DNA of 64,000 nucleotides, from positions 22,074,001 through 22,138,000 of the forward strand of contig OZ076409.1 in the NCBI GenBank assembly GCA_964187785.1. Direction: 5' to 3'. The position numbers and the translations under genes are program-made. The notes beneath the pieces were generated by a model. That model was given only the letters and a program-made list of their open reading frames with translations. It did not search any database and had not been told where the DNA came from. The stretch is from Amphiscolops sp. MND2022 (Eukaryota). Of the stretch, positions 48,206 to 64,000 are shown in pieces. How positions within the stretch are numbered: position 1 is the first letter of the stretch; every line of letters starts with the position of its first letter.

Positions 48206-48690
48206 GGGAACAGGACGTTTCTTCAAAAACGTTTCGGCAAAAAAACTCGAGACGTTTCGGCAAATTTTTCATGCCGAAACGTTCCGTTTTATCTTGGTTT
48301 TGTTTCGGTTTTTCTACAAACTGGTAGAATTTTGGAACTTTGTATGAAAACGATAAAACCATTCATGTAGGAATGATGCAAAGCATAAAACGTGCCTCGG
48401 ATATGTCTCCATTTCCTCTAGTGTCCCGCTGCCCCTTGGGGCAGCCTATATTTCCATCTTGCTAAGCGAGGTCGAACAGGAGCAAAGACCTAGCTGGAAC
48501 GGAGATCGCGAAGCGATCGTACTGGGAGCTGGTCTTTGCGACGGTGATACACAGGACATGCCCCACATATCATACGAAACGTTTCGGCAAATGAGTTTCG
48601 CCTGAGACGTTTCGGCGTGAGACGTCCGCCGCCATGTTTTTGCCGAAACGCATTTTGCCGAAACGTCATTTGCCGAAATGTCCGGAATAT
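48206..48690. mobile_element. MITE with TTTCGGC/GCCGAAA subterminal repeats and 8 bp TSD
   Basis: GTTGCACC at 48198-48205 and 48691-48698; GGACGTTTC / GAAATGTCC inverted ends. Confidence 0.75.
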
Positions 48691-49399
48691 GTTGCACCCT
48701 CCCCGGTGCAGACTCCGGTTAATTCCGGAAAGAATGCTACCGTAGCTGGGTAATCAGTCCCTGGTAGGGGTGGTCACCCCTTTAAATAGCATTCTGATAA
48801 CCGTCTGCATATGTTTTAGTGAACAATACAGTAAGTAATATGATGTTTTTGACAAGACATTGTCGTTATAATAAAAATTTTCTTATAACATTCCTTTTTT
48901 AACCCGATTTTCGCTTAACGTCTTTTGTATAAAGTTTTGTCGTCAAAAACGTTGCTATATTGCCCCGTTGCATTCCTTGATTACTAGTTGAATTTCGAGA
49001 AGAATGAATTATGCAAACGATTCATTTTATTTTCGGAATCAAAGAACTAACTCTTAAATTCGGAATAATGGAACGGTAATTTTCTTTTCGGATTATTGAA
49101 TTGCAATCACAACGACAGCTAATGGAAAATCTTGATTCACAAGAGAGGAGAAATTGTAAACGAGATTGGTGAAGGTATAGAAAAGGTTAACTAGTTCTGA
49201 AAATCATATAAACTCCAATGTTAAATTAAAAAGTTTTGGGCCAGGATATTGCCAACATTAGTAAAATCATCTGAAACAAACCAAAAAAAAACATGAAATG
49301 AGATATAGACAAATGGACATAGAAATTCTGATTGGCGCAATGGATGTGCAAATGAAAGATCAGTTTAACATCCTAATGTGTAGAGAAAGATACGAATCT

Positions 49400-50850
49400 T
49401 GAACAACTACATCTTTACGGTCAACTCGCGCGATTGTTACTCGTCCCGTTGATTGAGGCCTGGCTTTAATCTCGCGATGTATAGTGCCTCAAGCGTAAGT
49501 AGTTTGTTGGTGTCCAATTAGGAGTCTAAAATTTCGGTATTGCCAGACTTAGGGTCCACATTGCAGTCCGAGAAGGGGGCTCCCAAGGGTGAAGTCCGTC
49601 GCTTGTGTTCCGTCAGTCGTGTAGTCAGATGTCTAGCCGTTTGGCCGACATAGCAGGAGTTACACCCTGGACATTGAATACGATATACTACGCAACTGGT
49701 GAGCGATTTCACGACTTTGGATTTCAGGATAGGCAGGCAACTTCTGAGTTTCCTCGTAGTGAAAATTGTTGATGCAATCTGGCTTCTTAGTTGTCTCGCG
49801 AAGTGGTCACTCTCTCTACCTCTGTACTGAAGCATTAGCGTGGGTCGTGTCGTAAGAGGGTCAGATTTTTTTGTGGCATTCTTGTTAAACTGTGTTTCTT
49901 TTTGTACAATCTTAGACACTGTGTTGCTCACGATCTGACTGTAGAACTGAGGTGGATACCTATTTTTCTCGAATATCTCGGTTTTTTCAATACCTGCGGT
50001 TAATTCATCCCATTCAGATGTTGCTTGATTTATTCTATGCACTGTCCCTTCCACTACATTTCGCTTGTATTTCAATCGGGCAAGACTGGTAATCCATCAT
50101 TAGGCCCGTGTCGGTCGGTTTTGTGTACCACCCGGACCTGAGTGTGTTGTCCCTTCTCCTCTGGACTAGCATGTCTAAAAATAGAATGGAGCTTTTTTTC
50201 TTCTTCTATCGTGAACTCCAGATTACTATGGAGCGCACTGGCCATGTCCAAGAGTCGTTTCCCGTCGATGACTTTGACTGTCCTCAGGATGTCGTCGACG
50301 TAGCTGTAAAAGAATTTTGCTTGCTTTGGCGCTTCCTTTGAGCAACCACAGAGCCAAAAATTTTCCTCACTGCTCATCAGTGTTTTTATATCAGTTTTTA
50401 AACAGAGTTCATGGAACCAATAGCCACACCCTTCACAACATATGGCCGTGTGGCTGGTGTTCACGTTCTGCCGGCAATGTCCACAGGGGAAAACGTTCTC
50501 TTTTGGCCGATTGTCTGGATTCATTGGGGTTTCTCTTTTCAGATCATTTTCAAAAGCGTGCAACCAAATGTTGCTCAGAACCACGGATAAAGCCGAACCC
50601 ATGGCAAGACCATCAACCTGTCGGAACCATTTCCCGTCACATACGAAATGCACGTTCTCCATTGCCAACATAAGAAATTTAACAAATACCTTTTTCTCCA
50701 CAGGTGGAGGCTCCGGTTTTTCGTACACTATCTGTACTGCTAGTTGAATTGCTTCCTCCAAGGGTACATTTGTGTAGAGACTCCTCACGTCAAATGAAAC
50801 GAGTCTCTCATCTGCCATTTTTACTTTCCCGCAGTGCGTTAACTAGTTCT
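49400..50850 (-). mobile_element. Penelope-like element 1 (5'-truncated): RT with PHD insert plus GIY-YIG endonuclease
   Basis: VSFDVRSLYTNVP, DGLAMGS, YVDD; VVYRIQCPGCNSCYVGQTARHLTTRLTEH; frameshifted. Confidence 0.92.
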
Positions 50851-53296
50851 TTACAACGTAAACCAGGCGGTTGGTCAGCGCCCTCTCTGTCTGTACTTTC
50901 GTGTTTATGGCCGGTTTGCGAATACTGTTGAGACATCAGTTGCACGTGGAGAGTTTTCTGTGGATGAAACATTTACTACAACCTCTTCACCTCTTTCCGA
51001 CACGCCCTCCTTTCACCACGTGCTCTTTTCGTATTTTTCCCATCACTTCAGTCAAAACATCCCCCTCCAGCTGCAAATCATGCCCAACGAATCGTCGAAG
51101 ATAGCTTATTTGTGTTTGAGCCCACTGTAGCGAAGGCAATCAGTTCCTTCCCTTTTGGGTCGTCGGGAGGACCAAGCCTACTTGTGCCCCAGTTGTACAA
51201 AGACCTCATCGCAAAGAGCAACGGGCCCATAGGCACCGAGTTCCTCCAGAAGCTAACAAGCGTACTAAATATTGTCGTAGAGGGCAAAATCCCTTTAGGG
51301 TTGAGACCTTTTTTCTTCGGTGCTAAACATATCGGCCTTCGGAAAAAAGACGGCGGAGTTCGACCGATTGCAGTTGGAAACACGCTGAGTCGAATTTGCT
51401 CAAAATGTGTGAGCTCCTTCGCGACTGACCAACGACGAATTGATTTCAATGGTACGCAGTTCGTCTGCGGGACAAGTCGTGGAGCCGAAATCGCAGCACA
51501 TGTTTTTCGAAATCTCATTGAGAACGAGAAGAAACGTGACAATAAAAAAAGGTTTTGTAAACCCAGCGGCAGAATTTCTTGGGTAGGATGCTCAAAATGC
51601 TGTAAATGGTTCCATAATCAATTAGTTCTGCTCCGCTCAAAGATGAGACACCGTTTTCCGAAAGCAACGTCAGATTTACAACTACACGCACTCTGCATAT
51701 AGCGAAACCTCTCGTCTTTTCTTCGGAGACAAAGTAATTCAATCACAAGAGGGCTGTCAGCAAGGGGACCCAGAAGGTCCAGCTCTCTTCTCCGACACTA
51801 TTCAAGACCTCGTTAACCAAATGGTTTCGCAATATAATGTTTGGTACCTCGACGACGGAAATCTTTCTGATCACTATCGGACAGTCCTTGAGGACCTCAA
51901 ACGAATCATTGCTAGCACCGACGAGTATGGAATGTCTCTCGAAAAAACTAAATTTGACCTGATGTTCCTCGGAATATGTACCGAAAGCTCAAAAAAGAGA
52001 ATAAAAACGCTTTTTGAAGAAATTTGCGCGGGTATCAAAGTAAAGGATCATGAGAATTTGAAAATTTTAGGGTCGCCAATGGGCGCAAATGCTCGTCGAG
52101 TCCTGTTGAACAAAAAATTAATTGAATTGCAAAGACTCTCTGAAGTTGTTACGAAGCTAGACGACCACTATGCTTTCGACTTGTTGAAGAACTTGTTTCA
52201 GTCTACCCAAACTACTGTACTTTCTTCGCACCAGCCCTTGCTTTGAAGAGATGAATCTCTTACAGCAATATGATTCCATTATCCGCAAATCGTTGTCCAA
52301 AATCTGTAATGTCAATTTTAATGAAAGCAGCTATACTCAGACTATTCTCCCAGTCTCCAAAGGGGGCATAGGCATTGCGTTGGCTTCCCAGATTGCTCTT
52401 TTTGCTTTTTCAGCTTCAGCAACGGGCGTCAAATGTGCTCTGTCTTGTATCCTTCCGAAAGACTATGTTGATGCATCGTTTGAAAAGGCATTAAACTTGT
52501 GGCTGACGAAGGCGAACCTATCAGAAGCATCTTCGGACTTCATCCGAAAACATTGGGCGTCTCCTTTGAGTGATGCTACTTTTGATCAATTTATAACAGA
52601 CCTTGATGTGGAAAATGTCAAAAAATTGAACGCTTACCAAGACCCCTTTGGTTCCGCTTGGCTAAATGTTGTACCAAGCAAAAATCTCGGTCTGAAGTTA
52701 ACAGATCAGCAACTGCGCATCTCGTTATCCCTTCGCCTCGGTGCGAAAATTTGCGAGAAACACACTTGCCGTTGTGGTAAACTTGTCGAAGAGAACGGAC
52801 ATCATGGTCTTTCCTGTGCCAGAAGCGCGGGACGTTTCTCAAGGCACCACAGCCTTAATACTCTAGTGAAACAGGCGCTAAGTTCCATTAAAGTTTCCTC
52901 AATTCTGGAACCAAATGAACTGACCCGAACAGACGGAAAGCGCCCAGACGGAGTTACCCTTGCACGGGAAGAAGGAAAGCAATTACTTTGGGATGTTACT
53001 TGTGTCGATCTTCTTGCCCCCAGCAGAATAGAGAACGGATCTGTTGCCAACCCAGGCACAGCCGCTGACGATGCAGAGGAATTGAGAACAGCTAAGTACG
53101 TTTGTTTGACTGACAAAGGATACATCTTCCAACCCTTAGCCTTTGAAATTTTTTAAAACAGGTTGGGTAGGAATGAAGACCTGAATTGAGATTGATTAGT
53201 TATGATCGGACTTGGTTTAAGTATTTACATTTGCAATTGATGGTAGAAGTGGTTCAGCATCGGGTATATATAGCACCGCGACAGGTAGCTGTCAGT

Positions 53297-53636: not shown

Positions 53637-53818
53637 CTGTCAGTCAACAAAAAATGTGCGGTATCAAGATTTGTTTGTTGTATCGCACAAACAGGTACAT
53701 CAATGAGCGGCATCAAAAGTTGTGTGTGCGATGACATCTGGCAGGTACTTGAACCTTAGGGGTCGTGGCTCATCATTTGATCGTTCCCACCTTGCGAGGC
53801 GGATGGCAAACCTTGACA

Positions 53819-56800
53819 CCCCCGCATTGCCGACAGCCGAGCAAAGTGTTGTTGCGTCTTCGTCTTACCCAGTTCCTCCGTGAAAATGTCAGCGCAATTG
53901 TCACCACTTGCAATAAACTTCAGATCAATCGACTGATTCTTCACTGTTTCCCGCACATAGGCCATCCGAGTTGCAAAGTGTTTCGTCTTTGCGCTGTTGT
54001 CATCTCTGGTTGCTAATGCTAGGCACGATTGACTGTCCGTGAACAAAGTTGTCGCTATGGATTCTCCAAGAATGTCCAGAATCCCCCGCAAATGCACCGC
54101 TTCCTTTACGGCGTCGCTCAAGACATGAAGTTCTGCCTCAGTGGTTGAAGTCGATACACACAGTTGTCTTCTAGCAGCCCACGATATTGCCCCACTACCC
54201 ACGTTGAAGCAGAAACCAGTGATGCTTCGTCTATCGTCCTTGCAGCTGGCATAGTCTGAATCCATGTATCCATTTAGGCCTGCATCATGGCACTTCATGA
54301 AAGTGATGCCCACGTCAGCTGTGCCTCTGAGGTAGCGTAACACGTGCTTCGCTGCTTGCCAGTGAGCAAGCCCAGGGTTGCTAAGAATTCGAGAAAGTAG
54401 GTGGGCCGGGAAAGCCTGGTCAGTTCGAGTGGACAGTGAGAGGTAAGCAATGCTACCCACTAGGCCTCTGTAGTCATGTCTCAACATTTGCTGTTGCTCA
54501 TCCGATCCGTCTTCTGGCATCTGATCCTTCGTCAGCTCCAGCTTGTCTGCGAGTGGTGTTGAAGCTACCTTGCACTCGTCCATACCGTGTTTGCGAAGTA
54601 GGTTGCTCACATACACCTGATGCTTCATCGTCAGCGAACCGTCACCCCATTTGAAGGAAACTCCCAAGCACCACGTCAGAGGACCGCTTTCGCCATTGTT
54701 GAACCGCTCGCTCATCTTGTCCTTGAACCACGTGGTGAATTGACTGTCAGTTGACCCGTAAAGAATATCATCCACCCAGGTCACTATCCAGCACTTGTGA
54801 CCATTCCTCGACAGAGTCAGCAAGCAAGGGTCGTGAAGTGATGCCTTGAAGATGAGCTCAAACAGATGGGAAGAGAGACACTCAAACCAATTGCGCCCTG
54901 ATTGCTTTAGTCCATAAAGTGACCGCTTAAGCTTGCACACCATCTGTTTGCCCTTTTGGTACGCCTCTGGCTGCTCCATGTAGATGTCTTCTTGAAATAG
55001 TGCATTCTGGTATGCTGTCTTTATGTCCATCTAATTGAAAGGCATACTCAGCTTCACCCCACATGCAGGACAGTTCTGAGTGTAGACAGCTTCGCCGTTG
55101 GTGAGTAGGTGTCGTTAAAATCAATGCCTGTCGTCTGCGTGAACCCCCGTGCCACGAATTGCGCCTTGTACTTTACCACGTTTCCTTCGTCATCTAGTTT
55201 ATGAGCAAAATGCCACTTTCCGTTGATGATGCCTTGTCCTGATGGTGGCTTGACTAGCTCCCAGACACCATTTTCTTCCAGTGATTTGAACTCTCTGTCG
55301 ATCGCTACTTTCCAGTTGGGATCCGCCAGGGCGTCTGCTGTATTGCTTGGAAGGCAGCTTGAAATCAAACCATCACAGCGAAGTGCCAGGCTGTCCAATT
55401 CTCTCCCTGTCACATAGTCGCCGAAGTGTTGAGGCCCCCTTCGAGTCCTTCCCGAACATCTGGTTGTCGTCTGCTGCACTGCTGTTGTACTGTCTGTAAC
55501 ATTGGGTGTCCCTTCATCTGGATTGATGTTATCTTCTGATTCGCCCTGGATTGCATGGGTTTTCGTAGATTTGGCCTCGCATTGATTATCTGACACCAAT
55601 TTCAGATCATCAACATCCGATTGAGATGCATCATCGGCCTCGTTCTCCCGTTGGATGACTGCAGAACCACGTTGGTAAGGAAAAGCATCGTCGTTGAAGT
55701 TGACGTTCCGTGATGCCCAGACCTTTGGTGCCCTTGACTCTGACCCATCTGTTGAGGCTACAACATATGCTTTAGAATTTCCGAGTATCCCAGTAAAAAA
55801 GCTTCCCGTGCCTTGCTTTCCAGTTTCTTCCTGACTTCGTTGAGCACAAACGACTGGCACCCAAACACGTGAAGATGTGAAAGGTCAGGCTTGCTTCTGT
55901 GAAACATCTCAAAAGGGGTCTTGCCATGCGCCGCGTGGATTGATCAATTCGTCAGGTAGATGGCAGTTGAAAGAGCAAAAGGCCAAAACTGCTTTGGGAC
56001 CCCTGCAGTTGCCATCATGCATCGCGTCATGCCAGTCACAGTGCCGCATGCTCGATCATTTTTGCCGTTTTCTTTGGGTGTGTAGGGAGCAGAGAACTTC
56101 TATTTGATGCCATTGGATGTGCACAATTCACTGAACTGCTTTGACTTGAACTCGAGAGCCCCTTCTGAGACCAAGGTGCCAGGCCGACCAACAACGATGA
56201 GGAATCGTTGTAACTTTGCGGTGACCTCATCCTTTAACTTCATTGGGTATACTGCTCCGAAACGGCTGTAACTGTCGATGAAGCCCACTGCATAGCGAAA
56301 ACCCTCGTGGGACTCCTGTTGATTGGGTCCGAACACGTCTGTGTGAGTGATAACCAGTTTCGTTTTTGCTCGAGTGCCCCACGTTTTCGGAATGGATGCC
56401 CGCTTCGCCTTCTCGGTGCAGCAGATGTTGCAGTTCGTCTTTTTCTCGGAGCCAGAGATGTTCATGCCTACGACCTCTTGCTGCAACTTTGCCACTTCGT
56501 GACTGTTGTTGTGCCCCATAACTCAATGCCAGTGCTTGATAGAGTGAGACATCTTTGCCAGTGACCCCGTCTCCACAGGTTGAGCCATCACACTGAAAAG
56601 TTTGTCGTTTGTCATCATTGGCACAACAGTTCCATTGGGCATTTTGATGGTTGGGTCGTCATTGAACTGGATCATCGCCCCCTTGTCCGTCAATCGCTTG
56701 ACCGACACCAGATTCCTCGCGTAGGATGGCACCCAGAAGGCATCCTTCAGTTCCAGTAGACAAGAACGGCCCGAATTGTCCTTCACAAAGCATCGCACTG

Positions 56801-59793: not shown

Positions 59794-60474
59794 TATAACA
59801 ACCCAAGCTCGACATGATTGTGAGAAAATAGCCATTACAGGACTCGAGCCTGCATCTCAAGACAGATCTAGCTAGCAGTCAAGCGCCTTAACCCTTAGAC
59901 CAAATGGCTTATTTAATCTCACCAATCATTCGACTTATCACTAACAACGCCGTTGTTATAATATCCCCTTCTAACTGAAGCTGATGCCACACAGCTCCCA
60001 GTTGAACACAACTCAACTGGGGATTCAAGCCACTTATGTAATGCTACCAGTATAACAACCCAAGCTCGACATGATTGTGAGAAAATAGCCATTACAGGAC
60101 TCGAACCTGCATCTCAAGACAGATCTAGCTAGCAGTCAAGCGCCTTAACCCTTAGACCAAATGGCTTATTTAATCTCACCAATCATTCGACTTATCACTA
60201 ACAACGCCGTTGTTATAATATCCCCTTCTAACTGAAGCTGATGCCACACAGCTCCCAGTTGAACACAACTCAACTGGGGATTCAAGCCACTTATGTAATG
60301 CTACCAGTATAACAACCCAAGCTCGACATGATTGTGAGAAAATAGCCATTACAGGACTCGAACCTGCATCTCAAGACAGATCTAGCTAGCAGTCAAGCGC
60401 CTTAACCCTTAGACCAAATGGCTTATTTAATCTCACCAATCATTCGACTTATCACTAACAACGCCGTTGTTATA
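59794..60474 (-). mobile_element. Tandem TRIM: 3 x 167 bp LTR and 2 x 90 bp internal region
   Basis: LTRs 59794-59960, 60051-60217 and 60308-60474 with TATAACAAC...GTTGTTATA ends; TSD TAGC; minus-strand PBS TGGTAGCA and PPT AGAAGGGGA. Confidence 0.88.
59829..59909 (-). ncRNA. tRNA-Ser(GCT)-like sequence in the TRIM LTR (copies at 60086-60166 and 60343-60423)
   Basis: Acceptor stem AGCCATT/AATGGCT, A-box-like TGGTCTAAGGG, variable stem ATCT/AGAT, T arm GCAGG-TTCGAGT-CCTGT (this copy has CTCGAGT), then TTTT; anticodon stem poorly paired. Confidence 0.75.
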
Positions 60475-61562: not shown

Positions 61563-64000
61563 CTAGAGTTTCACCATTAGCGGCCGCTGCACGTACTCCT
61601 CCCTGCTGTTGATGGTTGGGTTCAGCGATTGAATGTATAAGGCCTCCAAGGTTAAAAGTTTCGACAGACAAGGGCAATTAAGGAGGATTGTTATTTCCGG
61701 TTGATTCCCAGCACAGGATAAAAGGTGTGAACCGACAGGTGCTGAGTCCTTCAGGTGTTCTGTCACTCGTGTTTTGAGATGTCGGCTTGTCTGGCCGACG
61801 TAGCAAGCCGCGCAGCTCGTACATGTGATTTTATATACAACACGACTACAGTAATCCTTCGAGACTTTGGTCTTGAGCGAGGGAAGGGCTGATTTCATCT
61901 TACAGGTTGTGAAGATGATATTTATGTCCTGTGAGATGTTCTTAACTTTCTTCGACATCTTGTCCGACATTTTGCCTCTGCATTGTAAAAAAGGCAACTT
62001 TTGATTCTCTTCTCCGAAACGATTGGTCGGCTACCCGCCTGCTCCACCTGGTCCGGGTTCTCGTGAATAATCTTCGCGATAACCCCTCTCACGAGTGGGT
62101 CATAAAACGCGGGTGGATACTGATTGCGTTCCCAGATCACCTAAGCTTTCTCCAATCCTGTGTGAAAAGCCGCCACGTAGAACTGGCGTGGTGGATACGA
62201 TGGACCATGCCTGCCACGGTGTTGCGCTTAAATCTCGTCGGCGCGGAAGCGTGATACGACAGACACAATCCTGTGTCAGTTGGTTTCGTATACCAATCAG
62301 AGTGTAGGCGCTGGTCAGATCTCGTGAGCAACATATCCAGAAACGGGATCGAACCTCCATCCTCGGTTTTCAATGAACTCCAAATTGGGATGAAGTGCGT
62401 TCACTCTGGCCAAAATGCCGTCTACGTCATGTTTCATGCTCCACAAGATGTCATCCATATAACGGTGAAATATCTTGGCACGGGGTTCCCGGTGTCCAGC
62501 CGTTGCTCTTGTGCATCCGCAGTGCCATGACCCAACGGCTACTCTTCTTATCTGCTGTACGCTCATGTCAAGGCATGCCCTGTGGTACCAGAAGGCACAA
62601 CGATTACACTATATCGAATATCCCCGTCTCGTTACACGACTTCCGCATTTTCCACATGGGTCTCTGTCAGCTGCAGTAACCGGGCTCTGCCATGTGGTGA
62701 CGGTGTCCACGATCTCCTCGCTTCCACCACCTAGAAACGGTTCAAACTTGAGCCAGATGTTCGCCAAGAAAACAGCCAACTTAGATCCCATGGCCAGACC
62801 ATCTCTCTTATCTCTCTGGTATCAATTATGACCAACCTGGAGACATACATCTTTGACGGCTAGTTTCATCAACTCTACAGAGGTCTCCTTGCTAAAATCA
62901 AGAACGCTGGTCTCCACCAATTCTCCGGCTAGTGCAATCGACTCATCAACCGGGACGTTGGTATAGAGACTCTTGACGTCAAGGGAAATCATTACTTCAT
63001 CTCGATCCAACTCAGCCGCCGCAATGCTATTCCGTACCTTTTCAGTAGAGGTCTCTAAACCCGCCCCTACTACCTGGTCGAACAGCTTGGCAAGCTCATT
63101 TGTCAGGTTCTCATAGCAGCTACCTGGCAAGGAGAGGACGGGGCGAAGAGGAACATCCTTTTTATGGACCTTCGCCAATCCGTAAAGTCGCGCCGGCTGG
63201 GCTCCGCAGCTCCGGGAGCGTTCATAGAAAGACTGGCTGATCTTACCAGCCTTGAAGAGCCTCATTAGCTTCCTGTTGAACCTGGTCTCTTCGTCAATTA
63301 CGAAGCAGTCGGGCTTCTGAATGTCCATTTGCTGAACTGAGGAGCGTCCATTTCTGCCTCAAGCTTGCCCCAGTACACCTGCTCAGACATCAGGCAAAAA
63401 AACCCAACCCCTTGTCAAAGGGGACCGCCTTGATACCACTCTTCTTCAGGAAAATGCTCACCTTGCCCAGTGTCCTGTCGACAGTAAAAGAGTTTGTCTG
63501 CTTCCTATACCACACCGCCGCAGCATTGAGCTCATTCAACAGCTCAGGTTCCGACCGCTGCATGTCCTTTAGACATCGATCCATGTCAGCCATGAACGAA
63601 AATCCATCGAATTTGCTCCATACCGGATGTCTTGGCCCCATCGATAGGAAGTCTCTGACGAAGCTTGGTATCTGTAAATCCCCCAACACGCGGACATTAT
63701 TTCCAGTGGTCAAAAGCGGTTTTTCCTGCTCATTAGACAACGCATGCAGCTTCTTGGAATGGCGCTCTCTGATGTCCCTCTTGTGCCGACGCAATTCCAA
63801 GCGCGTGTAAAGTGAGACTGAAGGCAATAGACCAGTGGGACACATGCTGGACAGGGCGTCGCGTGCCTCCGGTAAGTCTTTCTCGTGCTCGCGGACCGTA
63901 CCTCTTGCCGCAGCAATCTCTTTCCGCAGATGTCGTTTTTGGAAATTTCTCACTATCGTTATTTCGAAGCAACCATTGTCGGGCACCCTGAATCTCAGAA
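61563..64000 (-). mobile_element. Penelope-like element 2: RT with PHD insert plus GIY-YIG, degenerate, continues beyond the window
   Basis: PFDKG, PARLYGLAKVHKKDVPLRPV, SLDVKSLYTNVP, MGS, RYMDD, IPFLD, WYTKPT, VVYKITC..CYVGQTSRHL. Confidence 0.93.

Follow-up and report, generated by a model that had tools for sequence, protein, structure and literature searches.

A 64,000-nucleotide stretch of contig OZ076409.1 of Amphiscolops sp. MND2022 (assembly GCA_964187785.1, positions 22,074,001 to 22,138,000; hereafter the window, numbered from its first letter) carries on its minus strand a Penelope-like element (PLE), here called element 1, whose reverse transcriptase (RT) is interrupted by a PHD finger. 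The element is identified from the list of open frames, Pfam and tblastn as a frame of 256 amino acids (aa) at 50072..50842 that covers the RT from motif 3(A) up to where the thumb begins. This frame matches Pfam RVT_1 with an E-value of 7.2e-6 and is matched in tblastn by residues 392-593 of P0001, the product of an intact relative in the same genome. It contains DGLAMGSALSVVLSNIWLHAFENDLKRETPMNPDNRPKENVFPCGHCRQNVNTSHTAICCEGCGYWFHELCLKTDIKTLMSSEENFWLCGCSKEAPKQAKFFYSYVDDIL, in agreement with the string cited in the initial annotation of this DNA, and the motif 3(A) string SFDV...YTNVP. Translation and alignment place motif 4(B), GLAMGS, at 50594..50611 (minus strand), with G, A, M and G invariant across the PLE alignment, and motif 5(C), YVDD, at 50291..50302 (minus strand). 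Across 32 rows, the catalytic aspartates of motif C (D561 and D562 in P0001) do not vary. Between the two motifs lies a 71-aa insert (50321..50533, minus strand) that consists of a variable linker, the PHD finger and a second variable linker; it was delimited by alignment with PHD-less PLE RTs, in which the gapped span corresponds exactly to residues 104-174 of the 256-aa frame. The finger core extends over 50342..50485 (minus strand) from the first zinc-ligand Cys (codon 50483-50485) to the last (codon 50342-50344), as defined by Pfam, phmmer and the predicted fold, and has a C4HC3 pattern with C-G-C as the last pair.

The rest of element 1 is decayed or missing. With P0001 as tblastn query, the thumb, linker and C-terminal GIY-YIG endonuclease are traced at 49410..50187 (minus strand) in two high-scoring segment pairs (50187-50083 and 50087-49410), which lie in two other frames and contain two in-frame stops. 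The GIY-YIG core, with a C..C pair, is at about 49599-49694; its Pfam match is under the cut-off (E 0.0037), and in the shifted frame it reads VVYRIQCPGCNSCYVGQT, with two Cys between GIY and YIG. No sequence of the element occurs upstream of motif 3(A). The 5' part is gone, and the DKG motif is absent from the window copy because of this truncation. With no sequence 5' of motif 3(A), and with frame changes and stops downstream, element 1 is therefore a dead, 5'-truncated and frameshifted PLE.

Identity and placement of the insert

The initial annotation described an in-frame, C4HC3 PHD-like module between GLAMGS and YVDD, and this description holds in profile, sequence and fold comparisons. 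The gathering cut-off of Pfam PHD (PF00628) is 24 bits; the 256-aa frame as a whole falls just under it (23.7 bits, E 4.8e-5), and the 108-aa B-to-C segment of the window (25.6 bits, E 1.2e-5) and intact P0001 (29 bits) lie above it. Sixteen of 20 aligned members match the same profile at E ≤ 0.001. When the window finger is compared with the chain sequences of the PDB by phmmer, the Pygopus PHD is the best match (2vpb_A, E 7.8e-7), followed by other PHD fingers. The P0001 finger likewise finds Pygopus first (4up0_A, E 1.2e-7) and then the PHD fingers of MLL1, ALFIN, DIDO, UHRF1, TAF3 and BPTF; Pygopus matches to the two fingers span E-values of 1e-7 to 1e-6. Structure prediction, proposed in the initial annotation together with the warning that a missing zinc-finger fold would speak against a PHD finger, returned a PHD fold. 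The AlphaFold2 model of the 108-aa segment (20 aligned rows) has a mean predicted local distance difference test (pLDDT) score of 71.5, with PHD blocks at 77-85, and its ten best Foldseek rows are all Pygo PHD chains. These rows have root-mean-square deviations (rmsd) of 1.8-2.5 Å over 53-55 columns, target-normalised TM scores of 0.51-0.72 and 32-36% identity; the top match is 2vp7_A (rmsd 2.1 Å, 33% identity). Nearly all of the approximately 40 Foldseek rows listed are PHD fingers, while 1joc_A is a FYVE domain. A chance Cys pattern is rejected on the E-values and on conservation. Judged by sequence and predicted fold, the module that separates motifs B and C is a true zinc finger of the PHD type. 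The ESM Atlas gave no usable match with the insert alone as query. With the whole of P0013, a further protein, it returned general PLE clusters only (HTH_animal, DUF8422, RVT_1 and GIY-YIG, with arthropod and nematode labels; scores 0.88-0.90), which are uninformative on the insert.

The position of the finger within the enzyme is best seen in the predicted structure of full-length P0001 (32 rows; mean pLDDT 88.9, predicted TM score 0.78, PHD blocks 84-90). In the model the finger follows the helix of motif B (465-476) and precedes the hairpin of motif C (556-568). The best PDB matches of this model are the telomerase RTs 6usr_A, 3du5_A and 6zdq_A, followed by viral RNA-dependent RNA polymerases, LINE-1 ORF2p, and group II intron and retron RTs. 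The telomerase matches fit the published kinship of PLEs and TERT (PMC8557442). An RT of the PLE/TERT type, with motifs 1-7, is indicated by these fold matches, by weak RVT_1 matches and by the residues of motifs B and C.

Other features of P0001 define the type of PLE. The protein has an N-terminal domain with a DKG motif (PFDKGCGF), followed by RT, PHD, thumb, a Cys-free linker and, at the C-terminus, a GIY-YIG endonuclease with CCHH, VVYQLICPGCNASYVGQT...H...H; the Pfam GIY-YIG match (E 0.0011) is under the curated cut-off. According to PMC8557442, a CX2-5CxxC motif that resembles a zinc finger and lies in the RT-endonuclease linker separates Neptune and Nematis from Penelope and Poseidon. 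The linker of P0001 between thumb and GIY-YIG has no Cys by eye, as in the Penelope/Poseidon type, to which the lineage is assigned by features alone. Canonical Penelope/Poseidon PLEs, as described by Craig et al. (2021, PMC8557442), who cite Arkhipova (2006), have the same C-terminal CCHH endonuclease with two Cys between GIY and YIG, and the same tandem arrangement and 5' truncation. Both of these PLE hallmarks occur here, as a tandem array with a period of 2743 bases on contig C1820 and as the start of window copy 1 at motif 3(A). There are two differences. A PHD insert of 60-90 aa occupies the site between RT4(B) and RT5(C) where canonical elements have a short loop, and hammerhead ribozymes were not detected in the loci scanned with Rfam, namely the window at gathering scores and six related loci at E ≤ 0.01, which may not include the pseudo-LTR (pLTR).

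Distribution and conservation of PHD-bearing elements

The genome of the window (1.07 Gb, 1929 contigs) was searched with the 256-aa frame, which gave at least 158 matches at E ≤ 0.001. Twenty loci among the matches listed, the window's included, are 40 to 85% identical and have a Cys/His insert wherever the site is covered, in some cases with decayed ligands. In the tandem array on contig C1820 (locus L020), where matches recur every 2743 bases, P0001 is encoded by an uninterrupted frame of 853 aa with the PHD insert. Five additional loci include two intact frames with the insert (895 and 905 aa) and three frames without it (817, 818 and 637 aa), in which motifs B and C are 37 aa apart. PHD-bearing and PHD-less PLEs therefore coexist in this genome. 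That the insert is a quirk private to the window copy is rejected, as intact elements have it; the objection raised in advance, that intact family members might lack the insert, fails on the same frames of 853, 895 and 905 aa.

Similar elements occur outside this genome. A word-seeded search of 5.8 billion proteins with P0001 residues 400-640 gave 36 proteins at E ≤ 0.001 among 899 candidates, 20 with the insert and 16 without. The distance from motif B to motif C is 99-130 aa in 18 of the 20 insert-bearing homologues; of the other two, P0015 has an altered motif B and P0027 stops before motif C. In 15 of the 16 insert-free homologues the distance is 37-43 aa, and the loop of the sixteenth, P0037, whose motifs were not matched by the regular expression, is short by eye. 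The earlier expectation that PHD-less PLE relatives have only a short loop at this site is thus borne out. In other assemblies, insert-bearing clusters have full-length members with frames of 848-898 aa. P0011 shares its 90%-identity cluster with an NCBI record named for the acoel Symsagittifera roscoffensis, which is 322 aa long and ends just past motif B, so that the finger is not displayed. The best match of P0011 in the genome of the window is only 48-56% identical, and at least two species are therefore involved. Precomputed Pfam annotation assigns accession PF27108 to 14 of the 20 insert-bearing homologues (among P0002-P0018) and to none of the 16 insert-free ones; curators may already have modelled the insert region under this accession.

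A phylogenetic tree of the RT is consistent with a single gain of the insert. The tree was built from 277 RT columns and 39 rows, with the insert columns removed, using IQ-TREE in its 'quick' setting (LG+C20 PMSF) with SH-aLRT as the only support measure. A single branch (SH-aLRT 99) sets the 22 PHD-bearing rows apart from the others, and the tree can thus be explained by one change of state. A single gain is consistent with the tree rather than proven by it, because branches are long for the outgroup rows and the decayed window copy, a PHD-bearing query seeded the sample, and five distant PLE-like proteins set the root.

Within these 22 rows the finger is far better conserved than the sequence that joins it to the RT. 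Of the zinc ligands, six Cys occur in every row and the His in 21. Equally invariant are two Trp, one ahead of the His and one ahead of the last ligands, and the Val four residues past the second Cys. The shortened last ligand pair pointed out in the initial annotation is real and widespread, with C-G-C (C-x-C) in 14 of the 22 rows and CxxC or C..H in the remainder. Mean pairwise identity, computed over 21 rows, is 37.4% in the PHD core, compared with 13.4% and 11.3% in its two flanking linkers; it is 40.3% in the N-terminal domain, 39.7% in the linker plus endonuclease and 50-55% in the RT core. The PHD core is thus close to the other domains and far above its linkers, which suggests that the finger is constrained like other functional domains of the element and that the linkers are free to vary.

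PHD fingers in PLEs as such are known. Craig et al. (2021, PMC8557442) report PHD insertions in five Chlamys families of Chlamydomonas, located between RT2a and RT3(A) or within the endonuclease, and propose a chromatin role for them. The same source cites PHD fingers in CR1 LINEs (Kapitonov and Jurka 2003) and in Rehavkus transposons. Chlamys and the elements described here are alike in that a PLE polyprotein has gained a PHD finger inside a catalytic domain. Chlamys elements are algal and have an N-terminal endonuclease without CCHH, whereas the present elements come from an animal-type genome, their endonuclease is C-terminal and has CCHH, and their finger occupies another insertion site, the RT4(B)-RT5(C) interval. 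Because domain order and insertion site differ, a place in the Chlamys group is rejected. By position, the insert is an acquisition independent of Chlamys. Full-text literature searches, which did not cover Repbase, the supplements of PMC8557442 or subscription journals, yielded no description of a PHD finger in any animal PLE, nor of one located between RT4(B) and RT5(C); in these searches only Craig et al. (2021) and Chlamydomonas papers treat PHD fingers in PLEs. The novelty is thus a PLE lineage with a C-terminal endonuclease in which a Pygopus-like PHD finger interrupts the RT core.

Possible roles of the finger

The Pygopus PHD (2vpb, 2vpe and 4up0; Fiedler et al. 2008, PMC2726290) is the best match in both sequence and fold. 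Pygopus and PLE fingers have in common the pattern CGxC...V...[AS]I.C..C..WFH..C...W.C, which includes the Trp that divides the binding pocket, the Val at its base and the residues of the pairing strand. They differ in that the acidic EVND loop of Pygopus is absent from the PLE fingers, most of which are basic and 14 of 22 of which end in C-x-C; also, the Pygopus PHD lies at the protein C-terminus, whereas the PLE finger is embedded in a polymerase without the BCL9/HD1 context. According to PMC2726290, the cavity for K4 in the Pygo1-H3K4me2 structure is walled by W366, Y341 and D352, its base is formed by V350 and A356, and T3 packs on A356, I357 and W366. In the same source, binding is abolished by W366E and nearly so by V350E, A356E and mutants of I357 and E360. 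In the PLE fingers, the equivalents of W366 and V350 are Trp and Val in 22 of 22 rows, that of A356 is Ser, Ala or Gly in all 22, and that of I357 is Ile or Val in 20 of 22. The window copy retains E360 and has Phe in place of Y341.

As the nearest solved relatives bind the tail of histone H3 and the residues of their groove map onto conserved positions, we favour, tentatively and at somewhat short of an even chance, a reading by analogy in which the finger docks on the H3 N-terminal tail. From its surface loop, which separates RT motifs B and C, the finger would grip the tail with the invariant Trp that divides the pocket, the equally invariant Val that forms the base of the pocket, and the small and beta-branched residues of the pairing strand. 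Such docking would tether the RT-endonuclease to nucleosomes and keep it there through target-primed reverse transcription, and it might bias insertion according to the methylation state of K4. Chromoviruses, which are Ty3/gypsy elements with a chromodomain on the integrase, provide a functional analogy for chromatin tethering, as a retroelement enzyme is joined there to a reader of histone marks, and their targeting is experimentally supported. The reader fold, the enzyme (integrase versus RT) and the integration mechanism differ, and targeting by the PLE finger would be inferred only.

Several observations weigh against this reading. The acidic Pygo loop is lost; the equivalent of D352 is Tyr in 5 rows, Arg in 5, Phe in 3, Asn in 2, Thr in 2 and other residues elsewhere; no more than 10 of the 22 rows have an acidic residue in place of E360; and Y341 shows no conservation. 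A net charge of +2 or more is found in 15 of the 22 PHD cores (median +4, maximum +11), and the only acidic fingers are those of the window's own sub-lineage (-2 and -7) and of P0005 (-2). The H3 tail is itself basic. Docking on H3 is weakened by this prevalence of basic fingers and by the loss of the acidic loop. The structural evidence for the finger also has limits, as the model of the 108-aa segment is only moderately confident (mean pLDDT 71.5) and its Foldseek E-values are all at least 2.8e-3, which is above 0.001. E-values of this order are usual for so small a domain.

The same charge distribution would suit a finger that binds nucleic acid or the nucleosome surface instead of reading a histone tail, a possible role that we consider improbable on balance but take seriously. 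Target DNA or template RNA would be equally plausible ligands for a basic finger that is part of a polymerase. Besides the 15 net basic fingers, with charges of up to +11, Arg occupies position 130 in 15 of 22 rows, Arg or Lys follows the His in 15 and 12 of 22, the acidic loop with which Pygo contacts K4 is gone, and the finger is built into the polymerase itself. The invariant residues, however, are the Trp, the Val and the small or beta-branched strand residues of the H3 groove and are not basic; the sub-lineage of the window is acidic; and the nearest solved relatives are all histone-tail binders. Histone docking and nucleic-acid binding are not mutually exclusive.

A role apart from target choice, in which the finger recruits a host or element protein or serves regulation or escape from silencing, appears decidedly unlikely. 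It would agree with the binding of BCL9 by a second, rear face of the Pygo PHD, the closest relative (PMC2726290), and with tandem fingers of the same subtype at the N-termini of LINE and Helitron-type proteins, for which a common host partner is conceivable. Yet no candidate partner is known, and the conserved residues are those of the groove. It is very improbable that the insert is a functionless passenger, a captured exon fragment that happens to fold: relatives have a short loop at the site and the two linkers are free to change in both length and sequence, as such a passenger would allow, but lineages with only about 50% identity between their RT cores all keep the zinc ligands and two Trp unchanged, the PHD finger has three times the identity of its own linkers, and the insert is retained in many intact frames of at least two species.

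A profile of seven B-to-C segments from the genome of the window was searched against 1.84 billion cluster representatives. Matches at E ≤ 0.001 numbered 4086 proteins, of which 116 reached E ≤ 1e-10 and seven E ≤ 1e-30. Among the best 150 of the 4086, 60 match both an RT flank and the finger (P0179 and P0205 of these are doubtful) and 90 match the finger alone; 76 of the 90 have several fingers and 30 have 2A-like NPGP motifs. By spot checks, the finger-only matches include long interspersed nuclear element (LINE) proteins that have an APE endonuclease, a Helitron-type protein with DUF6570, and host-like proteins with multiple PHD fingers. In the transposable element (TE)-like proteins P0144, P0145, P0152, P0170 and P0179, the same PHD subtype occurs N-terminally in two to seven tandem copies. 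These matches suggest a PHD cassette common to several element classes. Compared with the fingers of other TEs (CR1 LINEs and the LINE or Helitron-type proteins P0170, P0179 and P0144), the PLE finger is of the same PHD subtype; those fingers are N-terminal, often tandem and outside catalytic domains, whereas here a single finger interrupts the RT core.

A broader view would combine docking with this distribution, with a lineage of animal PLEs that has a Pygopus-like methyl-lysine reader in its RT, a polymerase that picks targets by H3 marks as the first chromatin-guided PLE, and the same reader cassette in circulation among invertebrate PLEs, LINEs and Helitron-type elements. We regard this combination as doubtful. 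Target choice by PLEs is, to our knowledge, poorly understood beyond a bias toward microsatellites, and the finger provides a concrete and testable handle on chromatin-directed target-primed reverse transcription. The PLE RT is the closest relative of telomerase, and a conserved putative reader domain between motifs B and C implies that the loop tolerates a whole folded domain. The insert also extends the algal Chlamys cases to an animal, at a position that marks it as independent, and, with the PHD-only matches in LINE and Helitron-type proteins, supports PHD fingers as a recurrently captured accessory module of TEs.

Other features of the window and genome

The window contains a second PLE at 61566..63998 (minus strand), detected by tblastn with P0001 residues 56-853. 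It is near full-length and decayed, with several stops and frame changes, and extends beyond the window end. It also has a PHD insert between motifs B and C, which reads CGKCGSRVTRRGYSI*CNRCAFWYHRAC...WHCGC. About 1.1 kb from the 3' end of this second element are three tRNA-like units (59829-60423, minus strand), 257 bases apart, with Rfam tRNA scores of 42-46 bits. ARAGORN calls two of the three, with the anticodon undetermined, and the units look like a tRNA-derived repeat rather than working genes.

Element 1 lies head-to-head with a 5'-truncated non-LTR retrotransposon on the plus strand (50968-53156). Intact relatives of the latter (loci L030 and L031) encode at least 870 aa in one frame, in which a PHD finger of the family's own (Pfam 25.6 bits) precedes the RT, and frames of this type end with a CCHC motif and, by eye, a PD-(D/E)xK endonuclease-like region. 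A PHD-like string in the plus-strand RT (51547-51642) was considered as a second RT-embedded finger and rejected; it is a misplaced 32-aa piece of the family's N-terminal PHD, and most genomic copies of the family are without a PHD piece at this position. On the 3' side, element 1 is adjoined at 48357-48753 by overlapping open frames on both strands that are rich in repeated FRQ/RNV-like words, a sequence pattern that suggests a short tandem repeat. A 424-aa open frame at 53756-55030 (minus strand) appears by eye to be the RT/RNase H part of a Ty1/Copia-type pol.

Elsewhere in the same genome, canonical histone H3 genes (136 aa) occur in long tandem arrays with a period of approximately 3.63 kb, on contigs C67 and C33, at 21.12-21.17 Mb of contig C4 and on many small contigs; this description covers all 150 matches listed.

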